From Archangiaceae bacterium (GTDB lineage Bacteria; Myxococcota; Myxococcia; Myxococcales; Myxococcaceae), in the NCBI GenBank assembly GCA_043750125.1, contig JAYVCD010000319.1:1-17949 (forward strand): a DNA stretch of 17,949 nt, written 5' to 3'. The translations under genes and the position numbers were made by a program. The notes beneath the pieces were generated by a model that saw only the letters and a list, made by a program, of their open reading frames with translations, was not told the DNA's origin and did no database searches. Shown piece after piece: positions 1 through 17,949 of the stretch; position 1 is the stretch's first letter; the number at the start of each line of letters is the position of its first letter.

Positions 1-121
1 GTCGTTTGATCCCCCGGGGATCCCGAGCCAGCGCTTTGACCTCGTGACCGAGATCCAGAGCACGCGCGATCAGAAGATCGCCCAGCTTTCCGCTCGCACC
101 CAGAATCGCCATTCGGGCCAT
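1..121 (-). CDS. NAD(P)-binding Rossmann-fold oxidoreductase (atypical SDR/NmrA/BVR-B-like), 5' part only, runs off the window edge
   Basis: Not in the ORF track. Manual translation from ATG at 121 gives MARMAILGASGKLGDLLIARALDLGHEVKALARDPRGIKR, with a GASGxxG dinucleotide-binding motif and the typical GHEVxALxRxP strand. Confidence 0.85.
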   Translation of the reverse strand, partial: MARMAILGASGKLGDLLIARALDLGHEVKALARDPRGIKR

Positions 122-164
122 GTTCCACTGAACCTACCACGTGGGCGGCTGGGCCCTTTCCTGC

Positions 165-1853: not shown

Positions 1854-1894
1854 GACGGCCAACCTAGCCCGGATCGATCACCAGAAGAGGCAGC

Positions 1895-3412
1895 TCACGG
1901 CAGGGGTTGCTTCGTTTCCAGAGAACGTCGCAGCGCATCGGCAAAAGCCTCATCGGTCCACGGACGGAACAACTGCGCCGAGGCATTGAGCAAGATGCCG
2001 ACCAGGAACTCGGTGGTGTTGTCCACCGGCGACAGCAGCACGACCTTGAAGTCCGGCCGCTGGGCCTGCATTGCGGCGATGCGCAGCTTGGCTGCGTCGG
2101 TGAGGCTCGCGCTGTCGACCACCAGCGCGTGGGGAGCCGGCACCTCGTCGAGCGCAGCGATCACATTCTGGCGAACCAGGGCAGTGAGCTTTCGCGCGTC
2201 GATCAGCCGCGCGAGCCGAACGCGATCAGCCGGGTCCGGCTCGATCACGACGATTCGGTTGATCACTCCCGGGGCTTCGCCTCCCGCCAGGCGCTGCAGC
2301 AGCGTGTTGCGGGCGACACGGCGCAGCACCAGTTGCTCGATCAGGGTGGCCAGGTCGGCAGTGTCGAAGGGCTTGGTGACGTACGCGTCGGCGCCGAGGT
2401 GATGCATCTCTTTGGCGGACTCGCGCGACGAGTAGCCGGTCATCATCACCAGAACTACGTCCTGGCTCTGGGCTCGAACGGCACGGGCCACCTCGACGCC
2501 ACTTTTTCCGGGAAGATTTTTGTCGGTCACGACTGCATCGAATGTCGCGCTCCCGATCATCATCAGCGCCTCTTCCGCCGAAGCGGCTGAGACCACGTGG
2601 TAGCCGTACCCCTGCAAGCCGCGGGTGAGAATGGTGCGAATCGCAACGTCGTCCTCGACGAGAAGAATCCGGCGTGACGCGGGGGCGGGGGCGGGGGCGG
2701 GCTTTTCGGCTGCAGGCTGAACCCCCAGCGTGATGCGCAGCTCGGTCTTTGCCCAGGGCAATCGGCCGGGATCTCTGGCGTCGACGATCATCACTTCGCC
2801 GCCGACCGATTCCATCATCCGCCGGGCGATGGCCAGCCCAAGCCCACTGCCCTTCTCGCGCGGTTTGGTGGTGAAGCGCGGTTCGAAGACGCGCTCGGCG
2901 GCCTCGGGCGTGATTCCCGAGCCCTCGTCGCTGACCCGAACGTCGACCCGCCCGTCGCCCCGGACGTTGGTCATCACCCGCACCCCAAGCCGGCCCGTGC
3001 TGCCCAGATCCTCGAGCGCGTCGAGGGCATTGTGGACCACGTTGATCAGCGCATGAAGCAACGTGCTGGGAGTCCCAAAGGCGAAGACTTTTTCCGACAG
3101 CGGCGCTGCGGTGAACTGCTTGCCCAGCTTCTGAAGCCGCAACATGCACAGGTCGATCGCCTGCGCGACGATCGGGCCGACCTCGAAGCGGGTCGGAGGA
3201 TCCTGGTCGGGCGACAGCAGCAGTTGGTACGACGCGAGCAGATCTTCGAGCCGCTTGACCTGGCCCAGCACCATCGGCCACTCGGCCTGCCGAATCAGCT
3301 CTTCGCCCATCGCCTTTTGAACCAGCTGCAGTCCGAGCTTGATCCCCATCAGGGGGTGGCGGATCTCGTGGATCAGACCCGCAGCAAGCAGGTCGGTCGT
3401 GTCATTGGCCAT
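1895..3412 (-). CDS. Cytoplasmic hybrid histidine kinase: HisKA, HATPase, REC and a degenerate second REC
   Basis: H-box HEIRHPL; N-box NVVHNALDA; G1 DEGSGI; F-box FEPRFTTK; G2 GSGLGL; receiver ILLVEDD...VVTDKNLPG...MMTG...YVTKPF; second receiver-like domain IVVIEPD...LVVD...LFRPW. Confidence 0.92.
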   Translation of the reverse strand: MANDTTDLLAAGLIHEIRHPLMGIKLGLQLVQKAMGEELIRQAEWPMVLGQVKRLEDLLASYQLLLSPDQDPPTRFEVGPIVAQAIDLCMLRLQKLGKQFTAAPLSEKVFAFGTPSTLLHALINVVHNALDALEDLGSTGRLGVRVMTNVRGDGRVDVRVSDEGSGITPEAAERVFEPRFTTKPREKGSGLGLAIARRMMESVGGEVMIVDARDPGRLPWAKTELRITLGVQPAAEKPAPAPAPASRRILLVEDDVAIRTILTRGLQGYGYHVVSAASAEEALMMIGSATFDAVVTDKNLPGKSGVEVARAVRAQSQDVVLVMMTGYSSRESAKEMHHLGADAYVTKPFDTADLATLIEQLVLRRVARNTLLQRLAGGEAPGVINRIVVIEPDPADRVRLARLIDARKLTALVRQNVIAALDEVPAPHALVVDSASLTDAAKLRIAAMQAQRPDFKVVLLSPVDNTTEFLVGILLNASAQLFRPWTDEAFADALRRSLETKQPLP

Positions 3413-3424
3413 GGAATCCCCAGC

Positions 3425-4162
3425 CTAGAGCGCTTCGAGCAATTCTTGGACGACTGCGTTCACGGTTCGACTCGACGTGACGCATTGGCGGCGGGCCTTG
3501 GAGTACAGCGGCTCGCGTTCCTTCAACCGCCGCTTGAGCTCGCTCATCGCGTGGGGCCGGTTCTGCATCGGCCGCAGGTCTCCCTGCTTCACCACCCGGG
3601 TCCAGTGTTCTTCGGGGGTCGCCTTGAGCCACACCGTCTGGGTGCGGGCCAACAACAAATTGAAGGCCTGAGGAGAAGTCACCAGTCCTCCGCCGGTGGC
3701 GAGAACGCCGCGAGGGTGGGACTCGAGGAACCGGGTGAGCGCGTTGAGCTCGAGCTGGCGAAAGTATTCTTCCCCGTGAATCGAAAACAGCTCGGGCAGC
3801 CTCATTCCTGCTGCGCTCTCGACCATTTGGTCCAGCTCGTAGAACCCGACCCCCAGTCGATCGGCCAGCGCCTTGCCGATGCTGCTCTTCCCGGCGCCGC
3901 GCAGCCCGAGCAAGGCGATGACTCCGGGGGAAGGCGCCTGGGTCGAGGGCTCGAAAAAGCCCACCAGGGGCATTCGCAGCGCCTGCGCCACCTGGGCCAG
4001 ATTGAGCACCGAGATGTTCGCCCTGCCCGCTTCGAGCTCACCCAGGAAACGCTCGGACAGCCCGGCCGCTTTCGCCAGGCCCTTCATCGTCAAGCCCAGC
4101 TGTTGACGGTGGGCCCGCACCTTTCGTCCCACGTCTCGCAGCAGCGGTTCCTCACGCACCAT
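3425..4162 (-). CDS. boxR: BoxR/BzdR-family repressor (XRE HTH plus shikimate-kinase-like benzoyl-CoA sensor)
   Basis: N-terminal HTH (LAKAAGLSERFLGELEAGRANIS) fused to a shikimate-kinase-like domain (LLGLRGAGKSSIG, ATGGG, WLKATPEEH, QGDLRPM); divergent from boxC. Confidence 0.9.
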   Translation of the reverse strand: MVREEPLLRDVGRKVRAHRQQLGLTMKGLAKAAGLSERFLGELEAGRANISVLNLAQVAQALRMPLVGFFEPSTQAPSPGVIALLGLRGAGKSSIGKALADRLGVGFYELDQMVESAAGMRLPELFSIHGEEYFRQLELNALTRFLESHPRGVLATGGGLVTSPQAFNLLLARTQTVWLKATPEEHWTRVVKQGDLRPMQNRPHAMSELKRRLKEREPLYSKARRQCVTSSRTVNAVVQELLEAL

Positions 4163-4165
4163 TTG

Positions 4166-4210
4166 CGCACTATACTGCGTTTATAGCGCCGTCGCACGCA
4201 CTATGTTGCT
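4166..4210. promoter_or_regulatory. Divergent boxR/boxC promoter with two operator-like boxes
   Basis: CGCACTATACTGCG (4166-4179) and CGCACTATGTTGCT (4197-4210), 31 bp apart. They resemble the TGCA-based operators of BzdR/BoxR and overlap -10-like hexamers (TATACT +4171, TATGTT +4202, TATAGT on the minus strand at 4174-4169). Confidence 0.65.
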
Positions 4211-4245
4211 TGCAGGGGAAGGGCCGACTATGCGAGATCGAGTTC

Positions 4246-5913
4246 ATGGCTCACGACAATGTGGTTGAGACGCTGGCGTCCTTCGAGACGGACCCGTCGA
4301 AGTACAAACATTGGAAGCTGCAGTTCGAAGGAGAGGTCGCCCGGCTGTCGATGGACGTGAACGAGAACGCCGGCTTGAGGGCAGACGACTACGTGCTGAA
4401 GCTGAACAGCTACGATCTGGGCGTCGACGTGGAGTTGGCGGACGCGGTGCAACGCATCCGGTTCGAGCACCCGGAAGTGCGGGTGATCGTGGTGACCTCG
4501 CTGAAGGACAAGATCTTCTGCGCGGGGGCGAACATCTTCATGCTGGGCAGCAGCAGCCACCCGTGGAAGGTCAACTTCTGCAAGTTCACCAATGAGACCC
4601 GGCTCTACCTCGAGGACGCATCGGCCCACTCGGGGCTGAAGACGATCGCGGCCTTGAATGGAACTGCGTCGGGCGGCGGCTACGAGTTGGCCCTGGCGTG
4701 CGATGAAATCTTGCTGATCGACGATGGGAATTCCGCGGTTTCCCTGCCCGAAGTTCCGCTGCTCGGAGTGTTGCCCGGCACCGGAGGCCTCACCCGGGTC
4801 GTCGACAAGCGCAAGGTGCGCCGGGACCAGGCGGACTTCTTCAGCACCACCGCCGAAGGAATCAAAGGCAAGCGGGCGGTCGACTGGCGGCTGGTGGACC
4901 AGGTGGTCCCCAAGAGCCGGTTTGCCCAGGCGGTGGCCGAGCGGACAAAAGCGCTCGCGGCCCAAAGCGATCGACCGAAAGATGCGAAGGGTCTGATCTT
5001 GACGGCGCTGCAGCCAAAGCTGAGCGCGACTGCGCTCGAGTACAAGTACGTGACGGTCAAGCTGAACACCTCGCCCCGGGTCGCCGAGTTGACGGTGCGG
5101 GGACCAGACGGGGCGCCTCCTGAGAATGGCGAGGCCCTGCAGGCGCTGGGCTGCGATGCGTGGGCGGTGCGTGCGTTTCGAGAGCTGGACGATGCGCTGC
5201 TGCGACTGAGAATCAACCACCTCGACATCGGAACGCTGGTGATGAAGACCACGGGCGATGCGAAGGCAGTGCTGGCGTGGGACCACTTCATCGCGAGCAA
5301 CGCCTCGAAACATTGGCTGGTGCGCGAAGTGCTTCATTTGCAGAAGCGGGTGCTGAAGCGACTCGATCTGACTGCGAAGACGCTCTACGCGTTCATCGAG
5401 CCCGGCAGCTGCTTTGCTGGCTCTCTGGCCGAGTTGGCGCTCGCCTCGGACCGCAGCTACATGCTCGACGATGCGTCGCGCCCGACGACGATCGCGCTGG
5501 GCCCGTTGAACGCCGGCTCTTTTCCGATGAGCAATGGCCTCTCTCGGCTGGACGCGCGGATGCTCGCGACTCCGGCGCGAGTTAAAGAGATCCTCGCCCA
5601 CTCGGGCCCCTTCAGCCCGGAAGCCGCGCTGGCGGAGGGGTTGGTCACGTTCACTCCAGACGAGCTGGACTGGGAAGACGAGCTGCGGGTGGCGATTGAA
5701 GAGCGGGCGGCGATGTCACCTGACGCGCTGACGGGAATGGAAGCCAACCTGCGCTTCGCGGGCCCCGAGACGATGGAAACCAAGATCTTCGGCCGGCTGA
5801 CCGCCTGGCAGAACTGGATCTTCCAGCGCCCCAATGCGGTGGGCGAGAAGGGCGCTCTCTCTCTGTATGGCCAAGCGGGCGTTCGTCCCACCTTCGACAT
5901 GCGGCGGACTTAG
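4246..5913 (+). CDS. boxC: 2,3-epoxybenzoyl-CoA dihydrolase (benzoyl-CoA-dihydrodiol lyase), tandem crotonase fold, ~555 aa
   Basis: Signature segments YKHWKL, LKLNSYDLGVDVELADAVQRIRFEHPEV, KVNFCKFTNETR, SLPEVPLLGVLPGTGG and ETMETKIFGRLTAWQNWIFQRPNAVG. ATG at 4246 chosen over TTG at 4210. Confidence 0.96.
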   Translation: MAHDNVVETLASFETDPSKYKHWKLQFEGEVARLSMDVNENAGLRADDYVLKLNSYDLGVDVELADAVQRIRFEHPEVRVIVVTSLKDKIFCAGANIFMLGSSSHPWKVNFCKFTNETRLYLEDASAHSGLKTIAALNGTASGGGYELALACDEILLIDDGNSAVSLPEVPLLGVLPGTGGLTRVVDKRKVRRDQADFFSTTAEGIKGKRAVDWRLVDQVVPKSRFAQAVAERTKALAAQSDRPKDAKGLILTALQPKLSATALEYKYVTVKLNTSPRVAELTVRGPDGAPPENGEALQALGCDAWAVRAFRELDDALLRLRINHLDIGTLVMKTTGDAKAVLAWDHFIASNASKHWLVREVLHLQKRVLKRLDLTAKTLYAFIEPGSCFAGSLAELALASDRSYMLDDASRPTTIALGPLNAGSFPMSNGLSRLDARMLATPARVKEILAHSGPFSPEAALAEGLVTFTPDELDWEDELRVAIEERAAMSPDALTGMEANLRFAGPETMETKIFGRLTAWQNWIFQRPNAVGEKGALSLYGQAGVRPTFDMRRT

Positions 5914-5941
5914 AAAACCCTTTTTCAAACTGGAGCCCTCG

Positions 5942-7360
5942 ATGAGCGACATCAACAGCGAAAAGATTCCGAACAACGTGAACCTGGGCTCGGATTTGAA
6001 GCTCCAGCGGGCCCTCGAGCAGTGGCAGCCGAACTTCATCGACTGGTGGAAGACGATGGGGCCCGAAGGGTTTCAGGGCCGCGATGTCTACCTGCGCACG
6101 GCGGTCAGCACCCACGCAGACGGCTGGGCGCACTTCGACTTCGTGAAGATGCCTGAGTACCGCTGGGGGATCTTCCTCTCTGACGCTGTGCCGGATCGAA
6201 AGATTGGCTTTGGCGATCTGATGGGCCAGCCGGTCTGGCAAGACGTTCCGGGCGAGCACCGCAACACGCTGCGGAGGCTGATCGTGACTCAGGGGGACAC
6301 TGAGCCGGCATCGGTCGAGCAGCAGCGCTCTTTGGGCACCACCTGCCCTTCGATGTACGACATGCGAAACCTGTTTCAGGTGAACGTCGAAGAAGGCCGC
6401 CACTTGTGGGCGATGGTCTACCTGCTGCAGCGCTACTTCGGGCGCGACGGTCGCGAGGAAGCCGACGGGCTGCTCGAGCGGCGCAGTGGAAACGTCGACA
6501 AGCCGCGAATTCTCGGAGCGTTCAACGAGCCGATCGACGACTGGCTGAGCTTCTTCATGTTCACGATGTTCACGGATCGCGATGGCAAGTTTCAGCTGCT
6601 GGCGCTGGCAGAGTCGGGCTTTGATCCCCTCTCACGCACGACCCGGTTCATGCTGACCGAGGAAGCGCACCACATGTTCGTCGGTGAGTCCGGCATTCAG
6701 CGCGTCGTGCAGCGCACGGCCGAGCTGATGAAGCTCGACCCCAACGAGGACGCGCGCAAGCAGGGCGGCGTGGATCTGCCGACGATCCAGAAGTATCTGA
6801 ACCTCTGGTATTCGCTGTCGCTCGATCTCTTCGGCTCGGAGATCTCGACGAATGCGGCGAGCTTCTTCGCCTCGGGTCTGAAGGGGCGGGCGAAGGAAGA
6901 GAAGTTCGAAGATCACGTCGCGATGGAAGGCGTGTACCCGATGGAAGTCTGGGACAACGGCGCCTTCCGGCACGAGGAAGTTCCGCTGCGCTCGGCGATG
7001 AACGAGGTGCTGCGCGACGGGTACGTCGAAGACTGTCAGCGCGGAGTGGATCGCTGGAACAAGGTCCTGACCGACCGTGGCATGTCGTTCAAGTTCACCT
7101 TGCCCAACCGAAGGTTCCACCGGCAGCAGGGAATCTTCGCGGGCAGCCACTTCGATTTCGATGGCACGCCGCTGTCGGCCGCGCAGTGGGAAGCGAAAAA
7201 AGACAGCCTTTTGCCTTCGGCTGCTGATCGCACATTCGTGAAGAGCCTGCAGAACACGGCGGTGACCGAGCCTGGAAAAATGGCGAACTGGGTCGCCGCG
7301 CCGCCTCGAGGAATCAACAGCAAGCCGCTGGAATTCGAGTACGTCCGAGCGGACCTCTAA
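5942..7360 (+). CDS. boxB: Benzoyl-CoA 2,3-epoxidase diiron subunit, ~472 aa
   Basis: KIPNNVNL, VYLRTAVS, QGDTEPASVEQQ, diiron ligand motifs VNVEEGRH, FTDRDGKFQL and MLTEEAHH, and C-terminal FEYVR. GGAG RBS precedes ATG 5942. Confidence 0.97.
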   Translation: MSDINSEKIPNNVNLGSDLKLQRALEQWQPNFIDWWKTMGPEGFQGRDVYLRTAVSTHADGWAHFDFVKMPEYRWGIFLSDAVPDRKIGFGDLMGQPVWQDVPGEHRNTLRRLIVTQGDTEPASVEQQRSLGTTCPSMYDMRNLFQVNVEEGRHLWAMVYLLQRYFGRDGREEADGLLERRSGNVDKPRILGAFNEPIDDWLSFFMFTMFTDRDGKFQLLALAESGFDPLSRTTRFMLTEEAHHMFVGESGIQRVVQRTAELMKLDPNEDARKQGGVDLPTIQKYLNLWYSLSLDLFGSEISTNAASFFASGLKGRAKEEKFEDHVAMEGVYPMEVWDNGAFRHEEVPLRSAMNEVLRDGYVEDCQRGVDRWNKVLTDRGMSFKFTLPNRRFHRQQGIFAGSHFDFDGTPLSAAQWEAKKDSLLPSAADRTFVKSLQNTAVTEPGKMANWVAAPPRGINSKPLEFEYVRADL

Positions 7361-7385
7361 AGCGCCGGTAAGGGTGACGGCGGCT

Positions 7386-7582
7386 GAAAAATGGGAGCGG
7401 GGGCGCGACCGTGTCCCGCTCACCACACCCTGCTGTGGTGAAAGGGCCAAGGTCGCTCTCGAACGCAAGGAGTGATCGCGCGGGCCCTGATTGACCTGGA
7501 CCAGTGGCTTTAGATCGACGCCGACCGTTGCAAGGGCGACGAGAGGGAACCCCCTGTTCCCGCCAATGCCCAACGAGCATCC
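7386..7582. ncRNA. Candidate structured non-coding RNA or element, family unidentified
   Basis: No credible CDS here. At least five local hairpins, plus an alternative rod-like fold closed by 7393-7403/7551-7561. On the minus strand a hairpin is followed by CCATTTTT ending near 7386. Confidence 0.45.
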
Positions 7583-7649
7583 GAACCTATACCGTGGCCG
7601 GCATTACTCGGTCGTGCGGCGAGGTTGCGCAACGACTGCGCGGGGGCGG

Positions 7650-7961
7650 GAGAACGAGGCCGAGAAGTCGAAGCCGCACCCGGACATCTTCGAAGTGGCG
7701 CTGAAGAAGCTGGAAGACCCGGTGCCAAAGAGCTGCGTGGTGATCGGCGACACGCCCTACGACGTGACGGCTGCAAAAAAAGCGCACCTGCGAACGGTGG
7801 GGTTGCTCTCGGGCGGGTTTCCAGAGAGCGCGTTGCGGGAAGCAGGAGCGGTGGCGATCTACGCCGACGCGCAAGCGCTGCTCGAGGCCTACCAGCGATC
7901 CGGAGATTCCGCGTTGGACGCTGCGCCTACGTACCGGGGTGTCGGTAGCGCAGCCCCTTGA
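7650..7961 (+). pseudogene. C-terminal fragment of a HAD-superfamily hydrolase (phosphoglycolate-phosphatase-like)
   Basis: Motif III (SKPHPDIF) and motif IV (VIGDTPYD...AAKKA...VGLLSGG) are present. No motif I DxD, motif II or cap domain is found upstream, and the upstream in-frame translation is not HAD-like. Confidence 0.75.
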
Positions 7962-8172
7962 CCAGGTAGCTGACACAAAAGATTACGCAGAGGGCGACGA
8001 CGGCGAGGTTGAAGTTGTCGCGAAAGCCCTGGTTGAGCCGGTAGACGGCGACGATCGCAAACGCTGCGGCCATGACGAAGTGGCGGACGGCTCCGGGGAC
8101 CTGACGGATCTGTCCAATCACCATCGCCACCCCGATCACGCACAGCGCCACGAAGTCGATACCCACATTCAT
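7927..8172 (-). CDS. Small membrane protein (81 aa, about 3 TM segments), function unknown
   Basis: Three hydrophobic stretches; ATG preceded by GAGGA on the minus strand; starts 18 bp downstream of the flippase-like gene. Confidence 0.7.
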   Translation of the reverse strand: MNVGIDFVALCVIGVAMVIGQIRQVPGAVRHFVMAAAFAIVAVYRLNQGFRDNFNLAVVALCVIFCVSYLVKGLRYRHPGT

Positions 8173-8190
8173 CGAAGGTCAGTCCTCATT

Positions 8191-9240
8191 TCAGGCGTTC
8201 GAGGCCTGCTCAGCTTCGAGCTTGCCGGTGATGCCGCGGAAGCTGCGTTGCGACAGGGTCATCAGCGCCAAGCCGAATAGGACCTGCTGCGAAATCTGGG
8301 TGACCCACAGCAGGTTGGCGAACGCGATCCCGCTCGAGTTCACTACCTCGTGGGGGAGGAAAACGGAGATCCCCAGCACGATGAACGCCTGGAAGGTGCC
8401 CGCGCTTCCGGGAGCTGCGGGGATCATCAGGCCGATGATCAGCACGCCCAGGACGACGAACGACTGGAAGGTCGTTAGGGACATCGGGACGCAGCCCAGG
8501 ACGGTGCTGTCGCAGTTGAAGGCCCGGGACAACAATGAAATCCCGACCCCGTTGAGGCCCCAATACAGCGCCGTCCAGAAGAAGAAGGCGAACAGGTTCT
8601 TCGCGTCGGGAAGCTGCTTCATCGCCCCGACGAAACCGTCGACGACGTGCGCGACCTTCTCGCCGAGCTTCGGAGAAATGCGCCCGGCGGTGGCTGCGAT
8701 CAGCCGCACCGCGCGATCGTGCTGCCAGCGGGCGAAGAGCAAGAAGACCAGGCCCCCTCCGAAGACGGCGAACATCAGGTTCGCGCCGACCAGGATCCGG
8801 TCGATCTGCCCGTGATCGTTCGAGACGAAGAACAGCAGCACCCGCAGCACCACGGCGACGATCATCCCGTCGACGATTCGCTCGAAGACCACCGAGGCCA
8901 TCGCGGCGCTGCGTCGAATGCTGCTGCGTTCGGCGATCAAGAAGGGCCGGGCGAATTCTCCCATTCGAAAAGGCAGAACGATCAGCATCATGAAGCCGAT
9001 TCCGGAGGCTTCGTTCAGCGGGCGAAAGCGGACCTTCTCGATGCCCGACAGCAGGTGGCCCCAGCGCAGGGTCCGGGCCAGATGTACCCCGGTGAGGATC
9101 ACGAGGTACGGGACCAACATCCAATAGTTGGCCGACTTGACCGAAGCCCACATCTCGTCCCAACGGGTGTCCTTGAAGGTCCACCAGAAGCAGCCGAGGG
9201 TGATGGCCAGGCTTATCGAGAACTTGAGGAACTTCTTCAC
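8191..9240 (-). CDS. Lysylphosphatidylglycerol synthase TM / flippase-like membrane protein (UPF0104/AglD2 type), ~349 aa
   Basis: Multi-TM protein with RTLRWGHLL, LPFRMGEFARP, SVVFERIVD and IPAAPGSAGTFQ motifs. GTG at 9240 (VKKFLKF) chosen because the longer ORF overlaps the upstream gene. Confidence 0.88.
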   Translation of the reverse strand: MKKFLKFSISLAITLGCFWWTFKDTRWDEMWASVKSANYWMLVPYLVILTGVHLARTLRWGHLLSGIEKVRFRPLNEASGIGFMMLIVLPFRMGEFARPFLIAERSSIRRSAAMASVVFERIVDGMIVAVVLRVLLFFVSNDHGQIDRILVGANLMFAVFGGGLVFLLFARWQHDRAVRLIAATAGRISPKLGEKVAHVVDGFVGAMKQLPDAKNLFAFFFWTALYWGLNGVGISLLSRAFNCDSTVLGCVPMSLTTFQSFVVLGVLIIGLMIPAAPGSAGTFQAFIVLGISVFLPHEVVNSSGIAFANLLWVTQISQQVLFGLALMTLSQRSFRGITGKLEAEQASNA

Positions 9241-9256
9241 GGGCGAAGGGCCTATA

Positions 9257-9973
9257 TCAAAGCAACGGTTCGCCGCGCAGCAACGCAGCAGGATTGTCGT
9301 CGAACAGCTTTTTGACTCTCGAAGCCCCCCACCCTTTTGCGAGGGCGGCAATGGCAGCTGCGACCCAATCTTCGGCGCCCACGGGCGAATGGAGATCGGT
9401 CGCGGCGATGGCGTACAGGTCGTCATCGAGGAAGGTCTTGGCGAGTTTCTGGGCGACCCGGCCATAGCGACCGGTGATCGCCCCGATGTCGAGCTGGAGC
9501 AGCGCGCCGGCATGCACCGCGGCCTGGGCGCTGCCCTTCTTCTCGAACTCGAGACAGCGCTCGGGGTGGGCGATCAGCGCAGTGACTCCTTTGACCTTCA
9601 TCCGAAAAATGATCTCGGTGAGCATCGGAAGCGCAGAGGTGTAGGGCGCCTCGACCAACAACGTATTGTTTCCAAGCTTGCGAGCGGTGGGCAGCCCGGA
9701 CATCAGCGTCTCGTCGAGGAAGAAGTGCTCGGCGTTGACGAACAACTCGAGGGGGATCGCGTGGAGCGCGAGCGCGGCCTTCAATTCGGTCAGCCGCTGC
9801 AGCGCCACTTCGGCGGTCGCGTACTCGGGCCGGTGATGGGGACTGGGAGCGGCGCGAACGAAGCCGAGGGCGACCAGGGCTTTGGCCATCGCCAACGAGT
9901 CTTCCATCGTGCGACAGCCGTCGTCGACCGCGGGAATGAGGTGAAGATGGAGATCGGTGAAGGCGCGCGTCAC
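9257..9973 (-). CDS. PHP-family protein-tyrosine phosphatase (CpsB/CapC/YwqE type), ~238 aa
   Basis: Metal-binding motifs DLHLHLIPAVDDG, SPHH, IAHPER and ATDLHS; C-terminal DNPAALLRG. Start taken as GTG at 9973. Confidence 0.9.
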   Translation of the reverse strand: MTRAFTDLHLHLIPAVDDGCRTMEDSLAMAKALVALGFVRAAPSPHHRPEYATAEVALQRLTELKAALALHAIPLELFVNAEHFFLDETLMSGLPTARKLGNNTLLVEAPYTSALPMLTEIIFRMKVKGVTALIAHPERCLEFEKKGSAQAAVHAGALLQLDIGAITGRYGRVAQKLAKTFLDDDLYAIAATDLHSPVGAEDWVAAAIAALAKGWGASRVKKLFDDNPAALLRGEPLL

Positions 9974-10002
9974 AGGGCTATATGCCGATAGGAAACGCGT
10001 GC

Positions 10003-10031
10003 TTGTCAACGCTGCTGCGAACCCCTAAGAC
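10003..10031 (+). promoter_or_regulatory. Putative sigma70-type promoter of the BMC operon
   Basis: TTGTCA (10003-10008), 17-bp spacer, TAAGAC (10026-10031), followed by a GGAGGA RBS before TTG 10059. Confidence 0.45.
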
Positions 10032-10058
10032 CTGCGTCCCTCTGGAGGAAGTACCACA

Positions 10059-10697
10059 TTGGCAACGTCGCTTCGGACGTACGTCTTTCTCGATTCGCTT
10101 CAGCCTCAACTTGCCGCGCACATCTGCACGACTTGCCGCGGCTACTACCCTGTCCCCTACGTCGCATCGCTGTTCGTTGAAATCGCGCCTGGAATGGCGA
10201 TTCACGGGCTGATCGACGTAGCGCTCAAGCAGACGAAGGTGCAGCCGGCGACCCTGGTCGTCGAGCGCGCCTACGGAATGCTCGAAGTGCACAGCGAGGA
10301 CAAAGGGGAAGTGCGCAGCGCGGGCGATGAGATCTTGAAAGCGCTCGGCTGCACCGAGAACGATCGAATCAAGCCCAAGCTGGTCTCGAACACGATCATC
10401 CGGGCGATCGAGCCGATGCACGCGATGATCCTCGACCGGATTCGATTCGGGTCGATGATCGAGCCGGGCCAGTCGCTGTTCATCCTCGAGTGCGAGCCTG
10501 CGGCCTACGCGGCGTTGGCGGCGAACGAGGCAGAAAAAGCGGCCGATGTTCGCCTGGTCGACGTGACTCCGTTTGGTGCCTACGGCCGGTTGTACATGTG
10601 CGGCAGCGAGTCCGAAGTCGACTCGGCGGCGGCAGCGGCGGTCGCAGCGCTCCAGGGAATTACGGGCAAAGAGCCGGCTGCGGGCAAGGAAAAGTAA
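10059..10697 (+). CDS. BMC-T shell protein, permuted double-stacking type (CcmP/CsoS1D-like)
   Basis: [19 protein letters not shown], pore-gating [16 protein letters not shown] and FGAYGRL; strong RBS with TTG start. Confidence 0.93.
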
Positions 10698-10746
10698 TCT
10701 TCCAACTTCTTCAACGACACTTTCACAACAAGCACAGAGGTAACGG

Positions 10747-11055
10747 ATGGCTGACGCGCTGGGAATGATCGAGTGTAAGGGTTTCGTGGGCATGGTCGAA
10801 GCTGCGGACGCGATGGTGAAGGCGGCCAAGGTCGAGTTGATCGGCTACGAGAAAATCGGCGGTGGCTACGTGACCTGCATCGTGCGGGGCGATGTCGCGG
10901 CGGTGAAGGCGGCCGTCGAGGCAGGCGCGCGTGGAGCTGAGCGCGTGGGCGAGTTGGTCTCGACCCATGTCATTCCGCGTCCGCACAACAACATCGACCT
11001 GGCGCTGCCTTTGGGCCGGCTGTCGGTCGCGAAGACAGAAAGCGGTCAGAGCTAA
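10747..11055 (+). CDS. BMC-H hexameric shell protein (EutM/PduA/CcmK family)
   Basis: ALGMIE...[11 protein letters not shown]...KIGGG.V...[11 protein letters not shown]...HVIPRPH; GAGG RBS after an A/C-rich leader. Confidence 0.97.
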
Positions 11056-11066
11056 GAGGCTGATCG

Positions 11067-11354
11067 ATGCTTCTGGGCAAAGTGGTGGGGACGGTGGTCG
11101 CCACCCGAAAAGAGCCGACGCTCGAGGGCAGCACGCTGCTGCTCGTGCGGGGGCTGGATCTGGACGCCAAACCGACGTCGACGTTGGTGGTCGCGGTCGA
11201 TGCGGTCGGAGCCGGCGTGGGCGAAGTGGTGCTCTACGCGTCGGGCTCGTCGGCCCGGCAGACCGAGCGGACCAAAGATCGCCCAGTGGACGCGACGATC
11301 ATGGCGATCGTCGATCAACTCGAAGTCGAAGGGACGCTCAAGTACGTCAAGTGA
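11067..11354 (+). CDS. BMC-P pentameric vertex protein (EutN/CcmL family)
   Basis: [35 protein letters not shown] and [11 protein letters not shown]. Confidence 0.96.
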
Positions 11355-11563
11355 AGCCCCGCCCCACCACTCCCCCCGCGGGCTGCGTCGTCACTGTCCG
11401 CGCCAAGACCTACAACGCGCTGATGAATGCGACTGCGAAGACGGTCGAGGCGTTCAAGGTCGAGAACCACACTGAGCCGGTGCTGGTGGTCTACGGCGAC
11501 AACGCGGCGAGCGTGTTTTGTGAGCAGCCCGCCCCTCCTTTGAAGTCAGGGCTGCCGTCATGA
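11351..11563 (+). CDS. Hypothetical 70-aa protein inside the BMC operon
   Basis: GTG overlaps the BMC-P stop (GTGA) and its TGA overlaps the AldDH start (ATGA). Third codon positions are strongly G/C. It is the 3' part of track ORF 10931..11563. Confidence 0.75.
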
Positions 11564-12990
11564 ACGAGACCCAGATCAACGCGATCGTCGAGCAGGTGGT
11601 GCGCCGCCTGTCGAGTGAGCTTGGCGCGCTTCCGTCGAACACCGCAGTGGCTGTTCCGCGCGGGGTTCCGGCCTTTCATCGCGGTCGCACCGGCGTCTTC
11701 GACGACATGGACTCGGCTGTCGCGGCGGCGCGAAAGGCGTTCGAAGCCTGGGGTCACACCGCGATTGAGACCCGGTTGAAGGTCGTCGAGGCGATGCGCG
11801 AGGCGACGCGACGGGCGGCGGCAGAGCTGGCGCAGATGGCGGTGACCGAGACGAAGCTCGGCAACGTCAAAGACAAGATCGTGAAGAACCTGTTGTGCGC
11901 GAACAAGACGCCGGGCCCGGACATTCTTCGGCCCACCGCGTTCTCGGGAGACTACGGGCTGGCGCTGATCGAGCGGGCACCGTTCGGAGTGATTGGCGCG
12001 ATCACGCCGACCACCAATCCGACTGAGACGATCATCAACAACAGCATCAGCATGATCTCGGGCGGCAACGCGGTCGTCTTCAACGTGCACCCCAGCGCGA
12101 AGGGGGTCTCGAACCATTTCGTGGTGTTGATCAACGAGGCGATCGTCGCGGCGGGCGGTCCTCCCAATCTGATCTGCAGCATGGCTGAGCCGACGATCGA
12201 GTCCGCCGGACTGTTGATGAAGCACAAGGGCGTTCGATTGCTGTGCGTGACGGGCGGCCCGGCGGTGGTGAAGGCGGCGATGACGTCGGGCAAGCGCGCG
12301 ATTGGAGCGGGGCCGGGCAACCCTCCGGCGGTGGTGGACGAGACGGCCGATCTGGCCCAGGCGGCCAGCGACATCGTCGACGGCGCTTCGCTGGACAACA
12401 ACATCGTCTGCATCGTGGAGAAAGAGATCTTCGCGGTCGCGTCGATCGCCGATGACCTCAAGGCGCAGATGGCGAAGGTCGGCGCTTTTGAAGTGATCGG
12501 TGCGGCGATCAACAAGCTCGAGAAGATGGTGGTCGACGACGGGCACCCGGCGAAAGACTGGGTGGGCCGGGACGCGACGAAGATTGCCGAGGCCGCGGGG
12601 ATTCGTGTTCCTTCCGGCACTCGGCTGTTGTTTGCCGAAGTGGACCCGACGCACGCCTTCATCCAGGCCGAGCTGTTGATGCCGGTGATTGGATTCTCGC
12701 GGCTGAAGACGGTGGAAGACTGCATTGCGGCGGCGGTTCAGGCCGAGCACGGCTTCGGGCACACCGCGACGATGCACTCGACGAACATCAACAACCTTCA
12801 CGAGATGGCGAAGGTGATCAACACCTCGATCTTCGTCAAGAACGGCCCCTCGTTCGCGGGGCTGGGGATGCGGGGCGAGGGCTACACCAGCTTCACCATC
12901 GCCTCGCCGACGGGAGAAGGCCTCACGACCGCGGTGAGCTTTACCCGCGAGCGCCGCTGCACGCTGAAGGACTCGTTCCGCATCGTCTAA
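11560..12990 (+). CDS. CoA-acylating aldehyde dehydrogenase (EutE/PduP family) with N-terminal encapsulation peptide
   Basis: PFGVIGAITPTTNP, VTGGPAVV, GAGPGNPP, catalytic NNIVCIVEKE, ELLMPV, HTATMHS and GEGYTSFTIASPTGEG; amphipathic helix [16 protein letters not shown] followed by a Pro/Ala linker. Confidence 0.95.
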   Translation: MNETQINAIVEQVVRRLSSELGALPSNTAVAVPRGVPAFHRGRTGVFDDMDSAVAAARKAFEAWGHTAIETRLKVVEAMREATRRAAAELAQMAVTETKLGNVKDKIVKNLLCANKTPGPDILRPTAFSGDYGLALIERAPFGVIGAITPTTNPTETIINNSISMISGGNAVVFNVHPSAKGVSNHFVVLINEAIVAAGGPPNLICSMAEPTIESAGLLMKHKGVRLLCVTGGPAVVKAAMTSGKRAIGAGPGNPPAVVDETADLAQAASDIVDGASLDNNIVCIVEKEIFAVASIADDLKAQMAKVGAFEVIGAAINKLEKMVVDDGHPAKDWVGRDATKIAEAAGIRVPSGTRLLFAEVDPTHAFIQAELLMPVIGFSRLKTVEDCIAAAVQAEHGFGHTATMHSTNINNLHEMAKVINTSIFVKNGPSFAGLGMRGEGYTSFTIASPTGEGLTTAVSFTRERRCTLKDSFRIV

Positions 12991-13548
12991 GTGGAGCTCC
13001 CCGGTCCAGCGCTCGGCCTCATCGAGCTCGAGTCGATCGCCCGCGGAATGGTGGTCGCCGACGCGTTGGTGAAGAAGGCGGCGGTCCGAATTTCATTCGC
13101 CGAAGCGGTGACTCCGGGAAAGTACCTGCTGATTTTTTCGGGGCCGCTGGGGGAAGTCGAAGAGTCGTTCAAGGCCGCGGAGCTTGCGGGCGGGGCGATG
13201 GTGATCGATCGCCTGTTGTTGGCGCAGCTGGCGGGTGGAGTGGCGCGGGCGCTGGATGGAAAGCCCGACCTGATGAGGCCGGGCGAGGCGGTGGGAATCG
13301 TCGAGACGCACACTGTCGCTGCGGCAATCAAGGCGGCGGACACGGCGGCCAAGCGGGCCAACATCCGGATCACCCGACTGCACCTGGCCAAAGGCATTGG
13401 CGGAAAGGGCTATTTCACGATCTCGGGATCCCAGGCCGACGTCGAAGCTGCGCTCGAAGGAGCCGGGGCGTCGATCGAACCGCACCTGCTGGTGACGACC
13501 GAGATCATCGAACGGCCGCACCGCGATCTTCAAGGTCCTGTGCTCTAG
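12991..13548 (+). CDS. BMC-T shell protein, single-layer PduT-like type
   Basis: Two BMC domains (ALGLIELESIARG...ADALVKKA...PGKY; VGIVET.TVAAAIKAADTAAK...GIGGKG...IIERPH); starts directly after the AldDH stop. Confidence 0.93.
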   Translation: MELPGPALGLIELESIARGMVVADALVKKAAVRISFAEAVTPGKYLLIFSGPLGEVEESFKAAELAGGAMVIDRLLLAQLAGGVARALDGKPDLMRPGEAVGIVETHTVAAAIKAADTAAKRANIRITRLHLAKGIGGKGYFTISGSQADVEAALEGAGASIEPHLLVTTEIIERPHRDLQGPVL

Positions 13549-13627
13549 GTTGCCGCGGTTGAGCTGCGGTTTTACGTTTTGAATTTGCCCTTACTTTTGA
13601 GCTGAGGCTCGGAGTGGCGGGGCGCAC

Positions 13628-13665
13628 GCGGACTGTCCACCCCCAGCGGACAGTCGGCATTTTCT
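13628..13665 (+). terminator. Possible intrinsic terminator (or palindromic binding site) downstream of the BMC operon
   Basis: Perfect 8-bp inverted repeat GACTGTCC (13631-13638) / GGACAGTC (13648-13655), extendable by two GC pairs and followed by ATTTTCT. Confidence 0.45.
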
Positions 13666-13722
13666 CCCTCGGGAGACTCGCGTGGTTCAAATGCTGCAGT
13701 GAGCCGGCGGATGAGGTTTCAC

Positions 13723-16455
13723 ATGCGTTCCTGCGTTCTGATGTTTGCCATTTGTTGGGTTGCCCTGGGCTGCGGAAACACATCCGTGGGCGTGGGGGCC
13801 GGTGGTGGGCGCGGTGGCAGTGGCGTCGGGGGTGGCAGTGGCGTCGGGGGTGGCAGCGGCGTCGGTGGTGGCAGTGGCGTCGGTGGTGGAGCCGGAACCC
13901 TGCGCTCGCACCCGAGCCAGCTCGAAGGCACGGGCTACTTCGCAGCGGTGGCCTGGTCGCCCGACGGGACCAAGGCCCTGCTGGGCGCGGACGTGGGCGG
14001 CATCTACATCTCGGACGGACTCTTCGGATCGCCCCTGGGACGCTTTCGCGGCTACTTCGCGGGACTGAACGACAACACCGGGTTCGACACCAAGCTCAAC
14101 CGCGGCAACGGCCTGCTCTGGCCCGACGACGACGTGCTGATCGCCGCGGTCGGCGCGAACACGGGCGGAGGGATCTTCTCCCGAGATGTGAGCGCGAGCA
14201 CGGTCGTGGGCCAATGGACGCTGCGCAGCTCGACCTTCTGGATTGACGCCGAAGGACCGCAAAACGCGGCCGCTTCGACCCGTGAAACCGGCCGCACGCT
14301 GGAGTACGCGCCGGGGACCGGCGTGCGATGGGCTGCAGTCCACCTCATGCCGGGCTCGACGGCAGACTATGGAATCGCCGTCTCGGCGAATCACGGACAG
14401 ACGTGGACCGAGCTGCTCGGCTCGACGACCGTCGCCGGCTGGAGCGCGACCCAGCGGGTGGTGTCGATGCGGTACCTGCCGGGCAATGACGTGCTGCTGA
14501 TCGCCTCTTCGGGCGAAAAGAGCGTCGCTTCGGCGAGCAGCTCGAATGTGCCTGCCTTCCAGAGCGGCTTCGCTGCCGGCGTCTGGCTGCTGAAGAGCGC
14601 CTCGACGGCCACTGCCGCGAATGTCGGCGCCAGGCTGGTTCGTCTCGACGACGCGGGCGGAGGCAACCCCGGTGGAGAGCCCTGGTTCGCGATGACCGCG
14701 GTCGAGCGGGGCACGGCGATCGAGGTCTACGCGGCGCTGTCCTCCAATAGTGCGCGTGCCAACTCGTTGGTGTGGCGCTCGACCTTCACCTTCAGCGCAG
14801 CCTTCGCGCCCTTGTCGCAGACGTGGGTCGACATCAGCCCGGCGAGCACGCTCGCGGCCACCGACGGCAAGTGGAACGATCTCGAGGCCTTTGTCTCGGG
14901 CGCCGCCACCCACCTGGTCGCAACCGCGTGGGCCGGCAGCAACTGCAAACCGGCGGCGGGCAGCTACTACGCCATGGGCGTCTCGGGCACGCGGACCTCG
15001 AAGAACATTCTCAATACCCAGATGCGGTTGTTGTCGGCGAACACCGCCACGGCCAGCGCGGCCTGGCAATCCCTGCTCGACGCAATCACTCTGGGGTGGG
15101 CCGCGGCTCCCGCGCCCGGCACTTCTTGAGGAGTCGCCGGTTCGGCCGCCGCGGGCACCCCGCTGCGCAACTTCGGCACCGGAGACGACTGGTTCCCCAG
15201 CATCAGCGGCGATGACGGCCTGGAGAACGCCCGCCCCGGCGCCAGCGCCTGGACGTCCGGCTCGATGCGGATCAGCCCCGACGGAACGAAGCTGATCGCC
15301 ACGGGCCGCGCGGGGGCGTACCTTTGCGACGCTCCCTTCGGCCCGCTGTCTGCAGTGCGCTGGTACGCGCTCAACTCTGGCCTGGGCAACACGTCCAACC
15401 ACCGGCTGGCGATGTACCGGGGACCCAACGCAGCGCACGCGGGCAAGTGGGCCTTCACGGACACCGATCGCACCGCATACGTCGGCCAGTTCGCTGCGCC
15501 CACCGCCACCACCCGGAACACTCTGTGCGTCGGACGACCGGCATCAGGCGTCACCGGCACGGGCGTGGGAGTCGCGCTCAACAGCAAGACGATGCGCCTG
15601 TTCGTGGGAAGCGCTGCCTCGGCTCCCCATGGAGGGGACTTTTCTGACAACGCCTGGGCGGGCCCGACTGCCGGCAACTTCGCCAACCTCCCGAACGGAA
15701 CGGGGGCGACGGGCTCGACCGCGCAGTTGCTCGCGTTCACCGATGCCGCCAACATTCAGCACGTCTACGCAGTGGCCGGAAACGCACTGGTCCACGGGTC
15801 TGGATCCGCTTTCACTTCGTGGACGACGGCCAAGACGCTCGCCGCCAGCTACGGGATCGATGACCACGTCACCCTGCGCTACGTGAAGAAAGGAGCCGCC
15901 GAGTACATCTTCCTCGCTCTGCCCGACGACGGCGTCTACCGCGCCACCGGGCCCAACTTCGACACCTTCACGCTGTGGTGGAACAAGTCGGTCAGCGGCT
16001 ACGACCGGCAGGCGTTTCCCTACCTGGCGTTCAGCAGCGAAGGAGTGGGTCGCCTCTTCGCCTCGTTCGGCCCCGACGGGGTGTGGCAGGTCGACCCGGG
16101 CGCGGCCGCAGGGTCCGGCACGGGTGCTCCGGCAGGTGCGGCGAAGCTCGCCTTCGGTCCCTTCACCGCCACCGGACGCTTCGCGCTCACCACCGAAGAG
16201 CTCACCGGAGACCTGGTCGCCGTTCGGATGAAGTGGACCCAGTCAGACCTGGCGGCAAAGCTCTACCGGGTGCCCACGCCGGTCAGCGGTCCGGGAACAA
16301 CCCAGGACCTCACCGATGCCGCGTTCGGAGATCTGGGGGTGATGGTGATGGACCTCGAAGCTTCCGACCCCTACGTCGGAGTGCTCTTCAACCATGCTGG
16401 AATCAACGGAGTCTGGCGAGGGCCCGGCTATCCCGGAGATACCCACGGCTTTTGA
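13723..16455 (+). pseudogene. Large lipoprotein, GH74/BNR-like double beta-propeller (~910 codons), interrupted by one in-frame TGA at 15127-15129
   Basis: Signal peptide with lipobox ALGC (Cys at 13771); Gly-rich linker; WSPDGTK/ISPDGTK blades; Asp-box SANHGQTW. Track ORFs 13699..15129 and 15265..16455 share a frame, and the sequence between them is open and coding-like. GAGG RBS precedes ATG 13723. Confidence 0.75.
13813..13884 (+). repeat. 18-bp tandem repeat x4 encoding (GGSGVG)4
   Basis: GGTGGCAG(T/C)GGCGTCGG(G/T) at 13813, 13831, 13849 and 13867. Confidence 0.95.
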
Positions 16456-16463
16456 TCTGCTCT

Positions 16464-17822
16464 TCAGGCGTAGCTGCCGCGGATGTGGCGGGTGGTCCAC
16501 TTCAGCTCTTCTTCCAGCTGGCGCGCGACTGAGAGCACGAGGCCATCGGCTCCGACCCGACCGATGAGCTGAACTCCGATCGGGTGGCGTTCGGTCGAGA
16601 TCCCCGCGGGCACGCTGATCGCGGGCTGACCGGTGAGGTTGAAGAGCGCAGTGAAGGCGCCCATCACCGCGGCGGCTCGGAAAGTTTCTTCCGGACCCAG
16701 GCCCTGCCACTGACCGATGCGCGGAGCCGCGATCGGCAGCGTCGGCGTCACCCACAGATCCACATCGCCGAACCACGCCCTCACCCGATCCGACAACCGC
16801 GCCGCTCGTCGAAACACTTCGTCGTCGCGAACGTGGCGCCCGGTCTCGCGCAACCACCGCGTGACCGGCTGAAGCGAGCTGTCGCGCACGAATGGAATGC
16901 GTGCAATCTGCCGCTGCCAGATGGGAAGCACCTCGTCGACGTTTCCTTCGGGCGGCGGGCCTTCTTCGACGTGGTGTCCCAGCTCTTCGAGCCGCTTGAC
17001 CACGTCGAGCACCGTCGCGGCGATCTCCGGAGTGCACTGGCCCAGCGGCGACGTCGTGGTGAAGCGAACCTTCAGGCCCGACAGAACGCGCTGCGAAGAG
17101 GCGAGGAAGGAAGTCCCCCTCTGGTGTCCGACGAGCACATCGAGCATCGCCGCGACATCGTCTACGGAACGGCCCAGGGGCCCGATGGTGATCATGTTCA
17201 CCGGATCAATGCGCCCGTAGTCGTTGGGCACGGCGTTGCGCGAAGCCTTGTGGCCGACGAGCCCGCAGAGCGCTGCTGGAATTCGAATCGACCCTGCCCC
17301 ATCGCTGGCTTGCGCGATCGGCAGCAGACCGGCCGCCACCGCCGCGCCTGAGCCCCCGCTGGATCCTCCCGGGGTGTGGGCCCGGTCCCAGGGGTTGCGC
17401 GTCGGCAGGTGGGTGGAAGGCTCGGTGACCGGCATCGCCCCCAACTCGGACGTGGACAGCTTTCCCATGATGACGAACCCCGCGCGCCGAATCGCGGCGG
17501 TGGTCACATCGTCGACGGGCGAAAAGAAATACCGAAACGACCGGGCGCCCATGCGGGTGAACGTCCCCCGAGCGAAGTTCAAATCTTTGATCCCGGTGGG
17601 CACGCCGTGAAACGCACCCCGCCCTTCCAACGGCGCGGCATCCATGCGGCGGGCCGTTGCCAGAGCGCTCTGTTCCAGGACCTGGACGAACGAGCTCAAC
17701 GCAGAGTCGTGGCGTGCGATCCGCGTGAGGTACAGCCTCACCAGCTCGGACGAAGAGAGCTTTCGTTCGCGAATCAGGCGGGCCTGTTCCAGTGCAGACA
17801 TCGACAACAGTTCAGTGCTCAA
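16464..17822 (-). CDS. Amidase-signature family enzyme (~452 aa)
   Basis: Ser-cisSer-Lys triad motifs GVPTGIKDL, TPGGSSGGSGAAVAAG and ASDGAGSIRIPA; FNLTGQPAISVP; PIGVQLIG. Start uncertain (TTG 17822 or ATG 17801). Confidence 0.92.
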   Translation of the reverse strand: MSTELLSMSALEQARLIRERKLSSSELVRLYLTRIARHDSALSSFVQVLEQSALATARRMDAAPLEGRGAFHGVPTGIKDLNFARGTFTRMGARSFRYFFSPVDDVTTAAIRRAGFVIMGKLSTSELGAMPVTEPSTHLPTRNPWDRAHTPGGSSGGSGAAVAAGLLPIAQASDGAGSIRIPAALCGLVGHKASRNAVPNDYGRIDPVNMITIGPLGRSVDDVAAMLDVLVGHQRGTSFLASSQRVLSGLKVRFTTTSPLGQCTPEIAATVLDVVKRLEELGHHVEEGPPPEGNVDEVLPIWQRQIARIPFVRDSSLQPVTRWLRETGRHVRDDEVFRRAARLSDRVRAWFGDVDLWVTPTLPIAAPRIGQWQGLGPEETFRAAAVMGAFTALFNLTGQPAISVPAGISTERHPIGVQLIGRVGADGLVLSVARQLEEELKWTTRHIRGSYA

Positions 17823-17949
17823 GGTGCGGCACCATAGCGAGTAGTGTGCGGCGGATGGTGCGTCGTGAAGGTTCAGAGCCAGCGGAAGCGCGAGCGACCG
17901 AAGGGGCGGAGCCACGCTGCACTTTTCCAGCGGGTGAAAGTCCCGTCCG

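Follow-up and report, generated by a model that had tools for sequence, protein, structure and literature searches.

A probable diverged 4-oxalocrotonate tautomerase homologue in a Haliangium ochraceum-type microcompartment operon of the Myxococcaceae

The DNA analysed here is a stretch of 17,949 nt from an Archangiaceae bacterium (assembly GCA_043750125.1, contig JAYVCD010000319.1, positions 1 to 17,949; family Myxococcaceae in GTDB), referred to as the window. It carries an operon for a bacterial microcompartment (BMC) of the Haliangium ochraceum (HO) type, in which a small open reading frame (ORF) of 70 codons, ORF70, lies between the genes for the pentameric shell protein BMC-P and an aldehyde dehydrogenase (AldDH). 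We consider it probable, at roughly 0.7, that ORF70 is a non-catalytic homologue of the 4-oxalocrotonate tautomerase (4-OT) family which was inserted into the HO-type operon and whose function is independent of the microcompartment. On sequence comparisons we rate it as part of a fast-evolving clade of putative 4-OT fold, often devoid of the catalytic Pro-1, that is embedded in the HO-type operon and outlives the organelle; the mechanism put forward below is still a proposal.

ORF70 as a protein-coding gene and its predicted fold

ORF70 and its parts are located as follows.

11351..11563, + strand: ORF70, 70 codons, GTG start, TGA stop; probably a diverged, catalytically degenerate 4-oxalocrotonate-tautomerase-family homologue
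11351..11386, + strand: N-terminal Pro-rich extension, residues 1-12, genus-specific; conserved in loci L002 and L003; predicted local distance difference test score (pLDDT) 51 for residues 1-10
11387..11524, + strand: folded core, residues 13-58, beta1-helix-beta2-beta3 in the AlphaFold2 model; contains invariant or near-invariant family columns
11525..11560, + strand: C-terminal Pro-rich tail; pLDDT 65 for residues 61-70; length and sequence vary across the family

The start codon of ORF70 (GTG at 11351) overlaps the stop codon of BMC-P (TGA at 11352-11354) in a GTGA, and its own stop codon (TGA at 11561-11563) overlaps the start codon of AldDH (ATG at 11560) in an ATGA. An earlier note on this DNA had placed an ORF with these two overlaps in the gap between BMC-P and AldDH, and both its coordinates and its translation were identical to ours. 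The GC-rich third positions described there were reproduced as well. The GC content by codon position is 0.61/0.51/0.83, the third-position values (GC3) of the neighbouring genes range from 0.79 to 0.87, and in both shifted frames of the ORF70 stretch the GC peak falls elsewhere than at the third position.

Selection was assessed by the ratio of nonsynonymous to synonymous substitution rates (dN/dS) in pairs with dS between 0.05 and 0.45, more distant pairs being saturated (dN and dS around 1). The median for ORF70 was 0.34 over 60 pairs, with 47 of them below 0.5 and a single one above 1. In contrast, controls shifted by one or two bases (35 gap-free pairs) gave 1.38 and 2.52. The check proposed in the earlier note thus revealed purifying selection. 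Compared with two genomes of the same genus, ORF70 displayed values of 0.31 and 0.33, against 0.07-0.08 for BMC-P and 0.06-0.13 for AldDH, so that it is under selection yet outpaces its neighbours, by a factor of about four. Correspondingly, amino acid identity is 64-73% to the two same-genus homologues and 38-41% in two other genera, while the neighbouring genes are about 92% identical within the genus. All eight related loci that contain BMC-P and AldDH have an ORF70 match between the two, and the synteny suggested for inspection was found in other genera. In the source records the homologues are nameless or termed 'hypothetical protein'. For sequencing runs, six DNA holders from three studies were listed, with no RNA holder among them. 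ORF70 matches no Pfam or NCBIfam family, whereas all four neighbouring shell genes do; in agreement with the earlier view that it carries no BMC-H, BMC-T or BMC-P motif, neither PF00936 nor PF03319 was matched. All these results demonstrate that ORF70 is a genuine protein-coding gene under purifying selection.

An AlphaFold2 model calculated from a 70-row alignment (mean pLDDT 78.3) places strands at residues 13-17, 44-48 and 52-57 and a helix at residues 21-38. The predicted structure reproduces the beta-alpha-beta-beta core that had been guessed from the sequence. The conserved family columns are V44, L45, V46, V47 and Y48 as well as A53 and E58. The two cysteines thought to bound the core are indeed present (C12 and C57). 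Neither column is conserved across the family, however, and C12 is replaced by Ser in both same-genus homologues. Encapsulation peptides are terminal amphipathic helices separated from the folded domain by a linker. The ORF70 model has no terminal helix of this kind: its sole helix is part of the fold, and the tails are rich in proline and predicted with low confidence. Prediction of a complex between AldDH (27-row alignment) and ORF70 (70-row alignment) scored 0.01 against a mark of 0.32, a value that counts neither for nor against an association.

Descent from the tautomerase family and state of the active site

Proteins of the 4-OT family are roughly 60 residues long and adopt a beta-alpha-beta fold. 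A link between this family and ORF70 is provided by P0103, a gene of 69 codons starting with Met-Pro, which resides between BMC-P and AldDH in a genome of a sister family (G037) with the same operon order. This genome, which belongs to the same taxonomic order, is the only ORF70-positive one outside the window's family. P0103 matched 4-OT and 2-hydroxymuconate tautomerase sequences of the PDB with E values of 1.9e-5 to 4.7e-4 and the Pfam profile PF01361 with an E value of 0.0032, its Pro2 falling on profile position 1. Eight close relatives (59-93% identity) include four that JGI has named 'phenylpyruvate tautomerase PptA (4-oxalocrotonate tautomerase family)' and one with a PF01361 assignment. 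Comparison of alignments by hhalign gave 97.8% (E 1.2e-12, 56 columns) between the ORF70 family and the P0103 group; between this group and six canonical PF01361 proteins from related genomes it gave 89.1% (E 2.2e-6), with proline aligned to proline. Moreover, a hidden Markov model of the P0103 group retrieved many ORF70 members directly (E 7.5e-9 to 7e-4). Because of this chain of profiles and the shared operon position, we regard the ORF70 family and the P0103 group as orthologous and as probable descendants of the 4-OT family. A novel fold is thus not supported, the evidence favouring 4-OT ancestry through a syntenic intermediate. ORF70 is matched, by a remote and transitive link, to a known family that has nothing to do with BMC shells, the kind of match named there as speaking against a microcompartment accessory.

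Antitoxins of the Phd/YefM type (PF02604) have a similar strand-helix-strand-strand order and were considered as another source. They were rejected, since aligning the ORF70 family by hhalign to six PF02604 proteins from related genomes reached 0.5%, out of register. The window's genome also encodes a canonical PF01361 tautomerase elsewhere (contig C361:892-1071, - strand, locus L178; 72.7 bits, Pro start), so that ORF70 is not its sole member of the superfamily.

The N-terminal catalytic proline, Pro-1, is the hallmark of the tautomerase superfamily, and roles of Arg-11' and Arg-39'' are likewise described in the part of the survey by Davidson et al. drawn on here (PMC5818174). P0103 has the proline at its start, Arg14 aligned with Arg-11 and Met42 aligned with Arg-39. 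In the hhalign register, by contrast, residues Gly11-Cys12 of ORF70 fall on Met-Pro1 and the codon of Gly11 is GGC, leaving no start codon at this position; the only start that includes the first strand is the GTG at 11351. An 8-residue gap spans the region around Arg14 of P0103, and Leu45 aligns with Met42, the Arg-39 position. The aromatic residue at the Phe-50 position of 4-OT is kept (F56; F or Y in relatives). From this register we infer that ORF70 of the window's genome is probably not a Pro-1 tautomerase.

Across 68 unique family sequences, the Pro-1 position is occupied by a start codon plus Pro in 33 and by a start codon plus T, S, A, G or K in seven; the remaining 28, the window's copy among them, have no start codon there. 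Met-Pro is kept in 12 of 16 unique sequences from genomes without BMC genes (a thirteenth starts with Met-Pro where the aligner left a gap) and in 16 of 46 operon-linked sequences, a contrast that is descriptive only since the rows are related. An extremely diverged subgroup of operon-linked ORF70 sequences (L056-L058, L061, L062 and L071) carries an insertion ahead of the last strand. In another locus, a 226-nt gap between BMC-P and AldDH (L070:3286-3511) has no profile match and possibly harbors a more diverged or decayed copy.

Distribution of ORF70 and the host operon

With a family profile built from nine rows, 164 of 201 genomes in the window's family yielded a single match each. Among 1.84 billion proteins it retrieved 96 representatives at E<=0.001, all of 50-115 residues. 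In a sample of the phylum, positives were restricted to the own family (146/171) and the sister family (1/1), with none in other families (0/228). The 201 family genomes, which are related, so that the counts are not independent, and which include one unpublished genome (G076, ORF70 plus BMC-P), divide into 58 with ORF70 and BMC-P, 106 with ORF70 only, 28 with BMC-P only and nine with neither. The 28 are an upper bound, as some of these genomes (e.g. G016 and G102) match a larger profile. Neither PF03319 (0/5) nor PF00936 (0/5) was found in sets of five ORF70-keeping genomes, each set consisting of four single-contig assemblies and one that is 98% complete. In these genomes ORF70 is a lone gene, oriented divergently to an operon that encodes a small protein with a signal peptide, an FHA protein and a PP2C-cNMP protein.

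Among the 40 closest genome_contigs loci, gathered with BMC-P as query, 25 have ORF70 between BMC-P and AldDH, and so do L142-L146. It was absent from the other 15 (one of them incomplete, two with a distant AldDH), from each of 40 loci at greater distance, with Kofleriaceae, Haliangiales and Polyangia among their titles, and from ten of ten HO-type loci in five other families of the order, which preserve the arrangement BMC-T, BMC-H, BMC-P, AldDH, BMC-T with 13-295 nt separating BMC-P and AldDH. The remark in the earlier note that Haliangium-type loci lack such a gene agrees with L092 (uncultured Haliangium sp.), where the two genes are 42 nt apart and no match was obtained.

Comparison of two genomes of one genus, G106 without shell genes and G169 with the full operon, showed syntenic flanks and four aligned segments with the following identities.

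PP2C gene: 90%
about 110 bp just upstream of BMC-T: 75%
ORF70: 81%
downstream flank: 78%

G106 lacks three blocks, namely the gene for a small exported (outer-membrane-like) protein, the BMC-T/H/P genes and the AldDH/BMC-T genes. Since three insertions would be far less economical, this pattern argues for deletion around a retained ORF70. Pairs from genomes without BMC genes still displayed dN/dS values of 0.12-0.35. In the gene tree of ORF70 five switches of context are needed, at least three of which are forced by well-supported branches. A single entry into the operon, in the ancestor of two families, appears to account for ORF70, which has since been neither essential to the operon nor dependent on it. 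Its function is probably independent of the microcompartment, since purifying selection still acts on it in many relatives that have lost every shell gene and AldDH. What holds of the earlier reading is a real, conserved and unannotated small gene in many related HO-type operons. A novel fold and a dedicated role as a microcompartment accessory are not supported, the latter in view of the 106 genomes with the gene and no BMC-P and the 28 with BMC-P and no gene.

The other genes of the operon in the window are listed below. Their identities, as given before, were confirmed by Pfam, which assigned BMC-T, BMC-H, EutN/CcmL, Aldedh and a tandem BMC domain.

10059..10697, + strand: BMC-T, CcmP-like (double-stacking type), first gene of the operon; PF00936; NF053796 CcmP, E 3.5e-74, under its cut-off
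10747..11055, + strand: BMC-H hexamer shell protein; PF00936, E 1.3e-31
11067..11354, + strand: BMC-P pentamer (EutN/CcmL); PF03319, E 9.8e-31; stop overlaps the ORF70 start
11560..12990, + strand: acylating AldDH; PF00171; NF011927, E 4.3e-195, over its cut-off
12991..13548, + strand: BMC-T, PduT-like with tandem BMC domain, last gene of the operon; PF00936 twice; TIGR02526, E 7.9e-33, under its cut-off

HO-type genomes, including that of the window, contain three EutN/CcmL genes each. The two additional genes of the window's genome lie side by side on contig C239 (715-963 and 978-1232). In 44 related AldDH genes the first 20 or so residues (11560-11625 in the window) are nearly invariant across genera, with the motif MNE.QINAIVEQVVR(R/K)LS. 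This segment, which we presume to be encapsulation-peptide-like, is conserved with or without ORF70 and is followed by a variable linker rich in Pro, Ser and Ala.

Directly 3' of the operon, two large ORFs (13699-15129 and 15265-16455, + strand) have no Pfam family; in the first, a hydrophobic stretch at the beginning of the protein precedes Gly-rich GGGSGV repeats. Further upstream on the - strand, an FHA-domain sigma-54 activator adjoins a hybrid histidine kinase/receiver protein (165-1862 and 1895-3412). An LPG-synthase-like ORF (8191-9513, - strand), listed with 440 residues, overlaps a CpsB-like ORF (9257-10009, - strand) by about 250 nt; its Pfam match starts at residue 100, and the true start is probably located further downstream. 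The window's genome has this CpsB-like phosphatase and the LPG-synthase-like gene where other genera have a divergent FHA/PP2C cluster.

In these other genera (loci L131-L146, e.g. L134:2-4915, - strand), the operon or a lone ORF70 adjoins the conserved divergent cluster. It encodes a signal-peptide protein of about 200 residues with a terminal aromatic residue (outer-membrane-barrel-like), an FHA protein, a PP2C-cNMP-binding protein and a large protein with CarboxypepD_reg repeats. The divergent signal-peptide/FHA/PP2C-cNMP operon also flanks BMC-T in many BMC-bearing loci. A partnership of ORF70 with this operon was considered and dropped, the nearest gene having the appearance of an exported beta-barrel. 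That gene is unrelated to the CpsB-like neighbour in the window. With the query used, the window's genome yielded no small outer-membrane-like gene, and PP2C matches elsewhere in it were only partial.

Proposed history, alternative explanations and known systems

The observations can be combined into the following proposal. A gene of the 4-OT family would have been inserted between BMC-P and AldDH of an HO-type operon in the common ancestor of two families and would have diverged rapidly afterwards. In the window's genus the start may then have shifted to the GTG that overlaps the BMC-P stop codon, the Arg-11 loop would have been deleted and the Arg-39 position turned into Leu, and Pro-1 tautomerase activity would thereby have been lost from the window's protein. 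Selection would have retained the fold and the strand motif VLVVYG..A....E. The founding 4-OT enzyme is a hexamer, and the strands corresponding to this motif build its dimer and hexamer interfaces. Because fold and motif are kept while the catalytic residues are lost, ORF70 may serve as a small oligomer with a binding or regulatory role. In the window's genome it would be co-produced with BMC-P and AldDH by translational coupling.

Several points weigh against this account. The main weakness is that the proposed link from ORF70 to 4-OT is transitive. P0103 itself scores below the gathering cut-off of PF01361 (17.8 versus 22 bits), and direct comparison of the ORF70 family with the same six canonical PF01361 proteins by hhalign gave 0.4% (E 0.14). 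ORF70 has no PF01361 match at E<=10, and one of 70 family members reached an E value of 0.18. ORF70 and its family profile found nothing usable among PDB sequences or in the ESM Atlas, the PDB matches consisting of antibody light chains only (E 1.3-1.6). Structure searches with the ORF70 model (Foldseek against the PDB and VIA-align, wide and as a second look) returned generic small alpha/beta proteins and de novo designs with a best Z of 6.0. No 4-OT chain was among the rows listed, nor was there one for the P0103 control model (pLDDT 69.5), which had no significant Foldseek match. Since this control, 4-OT-like by sequence, also fails to retrieve 4-OT, the structure searches give no information on the ORF70 fold. 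About half of the relatives retain Met-Pro in register, and the family may still be enzymatic. The non-independence of the genome counts belongs here as well. Finally, the operon position and the coupling on both sides would also be consistent with a role connected to the microcompartment in the window's genome.

A more novel reading holds that the operon insertion, which is specific to this taxonomic order, marks a real biochemical or physical link. Either the ancestral HO-type organelle of these myxobacteria included a tautomerase step on an enol or an unsaturated carbonyl, or the tautomerase fold was recruited as a catalytically dead, oligomeric microcompartment factor and acquired a second, organelle-independent job later. 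In the latter case the second job would account for the gene outliving the organelle. We regard this reading as unlikely.

Somewhat less likely is a dedicated accessory of the HO organelle, that is, a shell-associated protein, an assembly factor or a cargo adaptor. The location with 4-nt overlaps on both sides and the recurrence of this position in eight loci of other genomes, in 25 of the 40 closest loci and in L142-L146 are what such a protein would lead one to expect, and the one open face of the predicted beta-alpha-beta-beta sheet could take up a partner. The cross-table of 201 genomes, the deletions within single genera and the 50 HO loci without the gene disagree with it, as do the purifying selection that persists in genomes without BMC genes, the enzyme-family ancestry and the lack of an encapsulation-peptide-type terminal helix in the model.

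We give still less credence to an active enzyme of the microcompartment pathway, a tautomerase or isomerase acting on an enol or an unsaturated carbonyl upstream of AldDH through a residue other than Pro-1. Its 4-OT ancestry, the start codon plus Pro in 33 of 68 relatives, the retained aromatic residue at the Phe-50 position and the coupling to the adjoining aldehyde dehydrogenase gene would suit this role, and a canonical tautomerase gene belongs to the ARO microcompartment type in the part of the literature source used here (PMC10470539). The window's protein, however, lacks Pro-1, the Arg-11 loop and Arg-39, and its Cys12, which takes the place of the proline, is replaced by Ser in the two homologues of the same genus. 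Replacement or burial of Pro-1 in 35 of 68 sequences suggests that selection keeps something other than catalysis, and the rate of change in ORF70 is about four times that of the neighbouring enzymes. It is very improbable that ORF70 is a decaying remnant or a chance frame: high-GC DNA is rich in long spurious frames, the ORF70 frame is open from 10931, no Pfam or NCBIfam family matches and divergence is fast (64-73% within the genus versus about 92%), but within-genus dN/dS is 0.31-0.33 with shifted frames above 1, GC3 reaches 0.83 in the ORF70 frame only, the genus-specific N-terminal extension is itself conserved, a single copy is kept in 164/201 genomes and a fold is predicted with confidence.

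If ORF70 is a non-catalytic 4-OT-family homologue with a function of its own, a name becomes available for a gene that Pfam and NCBIfam miss and that occurs as a single copy in about four fifths of the sampled family genomes. The family would show in a clear natural series how an enzyme fold gives up its catalytic residues, with Met-Pro kept, replaced or buried by lineage, and the gene stays in place while the organelle operon is deleted around it. Furthermore, a tautomerase-derived gene fixed in the HO operon of one lineage would be a testable lead on HO function. If the ancestral organelle did include a tautomerase step, this would give a first concrete indication of what chemistry takes place in the best-studied model shell; if ORF70 is only a passenger, the annotation correction remains.

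The HO-type locus, named after Haliangium ochraceum, is described with a 'characteristic BMC-P triplet' and a function that 'remains enigmatic' in the main text of Sutter et al. (2021, PMC8217296). The window resembles it, as far as that text describes the type, in the order BMC-T, BMC-H, BMC-P, AldDH, BMC-T, in the CcmP-like BMC-T and in the three EutN/CcmL genes. It differs in having a further gene, restricted to the window's family and one sister family, inserted between BMC-P and AldDH. The words 'tautomerase', 'pfam01361' and 'oxalocrotonate' do not occur in this main text; the supplementary locus diagrams, which lay outside the search, may show the gene. Literature searches on myxobacterial or native HO microcompartments returned nothing relevant.

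The only pairing of a tautomerase with a bacterial microcompartment that the literature search returned is that of the ARO-type loci of Actinobacteria, which contain canonical 2-hydroxymuconate tautomerase genes according to the part of PMC10470539 available. Common to these loci and the window is a putative 4-OT-family gene alongside shell genes and AldDH. Unlike them, the window has no ARO pathway genes, and ORF70 is highly diverged and survives the loss of the organelle. Tautomerase-superfamily sequences without Pro-1 exist, none of them characterised as far as the part of Davidson et al. used here indicates (PMC5818174). They share with ORF70 the absence of the hallmark proline; ORF70, a protein of the short 4-OT kind, lacks the arginines as well.

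The closest comparison is with 4-OT itself (DmpI, XylH; PF01361). ORF70 agrees with it in a length of about 60-70 residues, in the predicted beta-alpha-beta unit with an extra strand, in the profile chain through P0103, in the many relatives with Met-Pro in the Pro-1 register and in the aromatic residue at the Phe-50 position. It departs from 4-OT in its 11-residue N-terminal extension, in the Cys at Pro-1, the missing Arg-11 loop and the Leu at Arg-39, and in having neither a PF01361 score nor a positive direct family profile comparison. Moreover, ORF70 is set in an operon of shell proteins, not in an aromatic meta-cleavage cluster.

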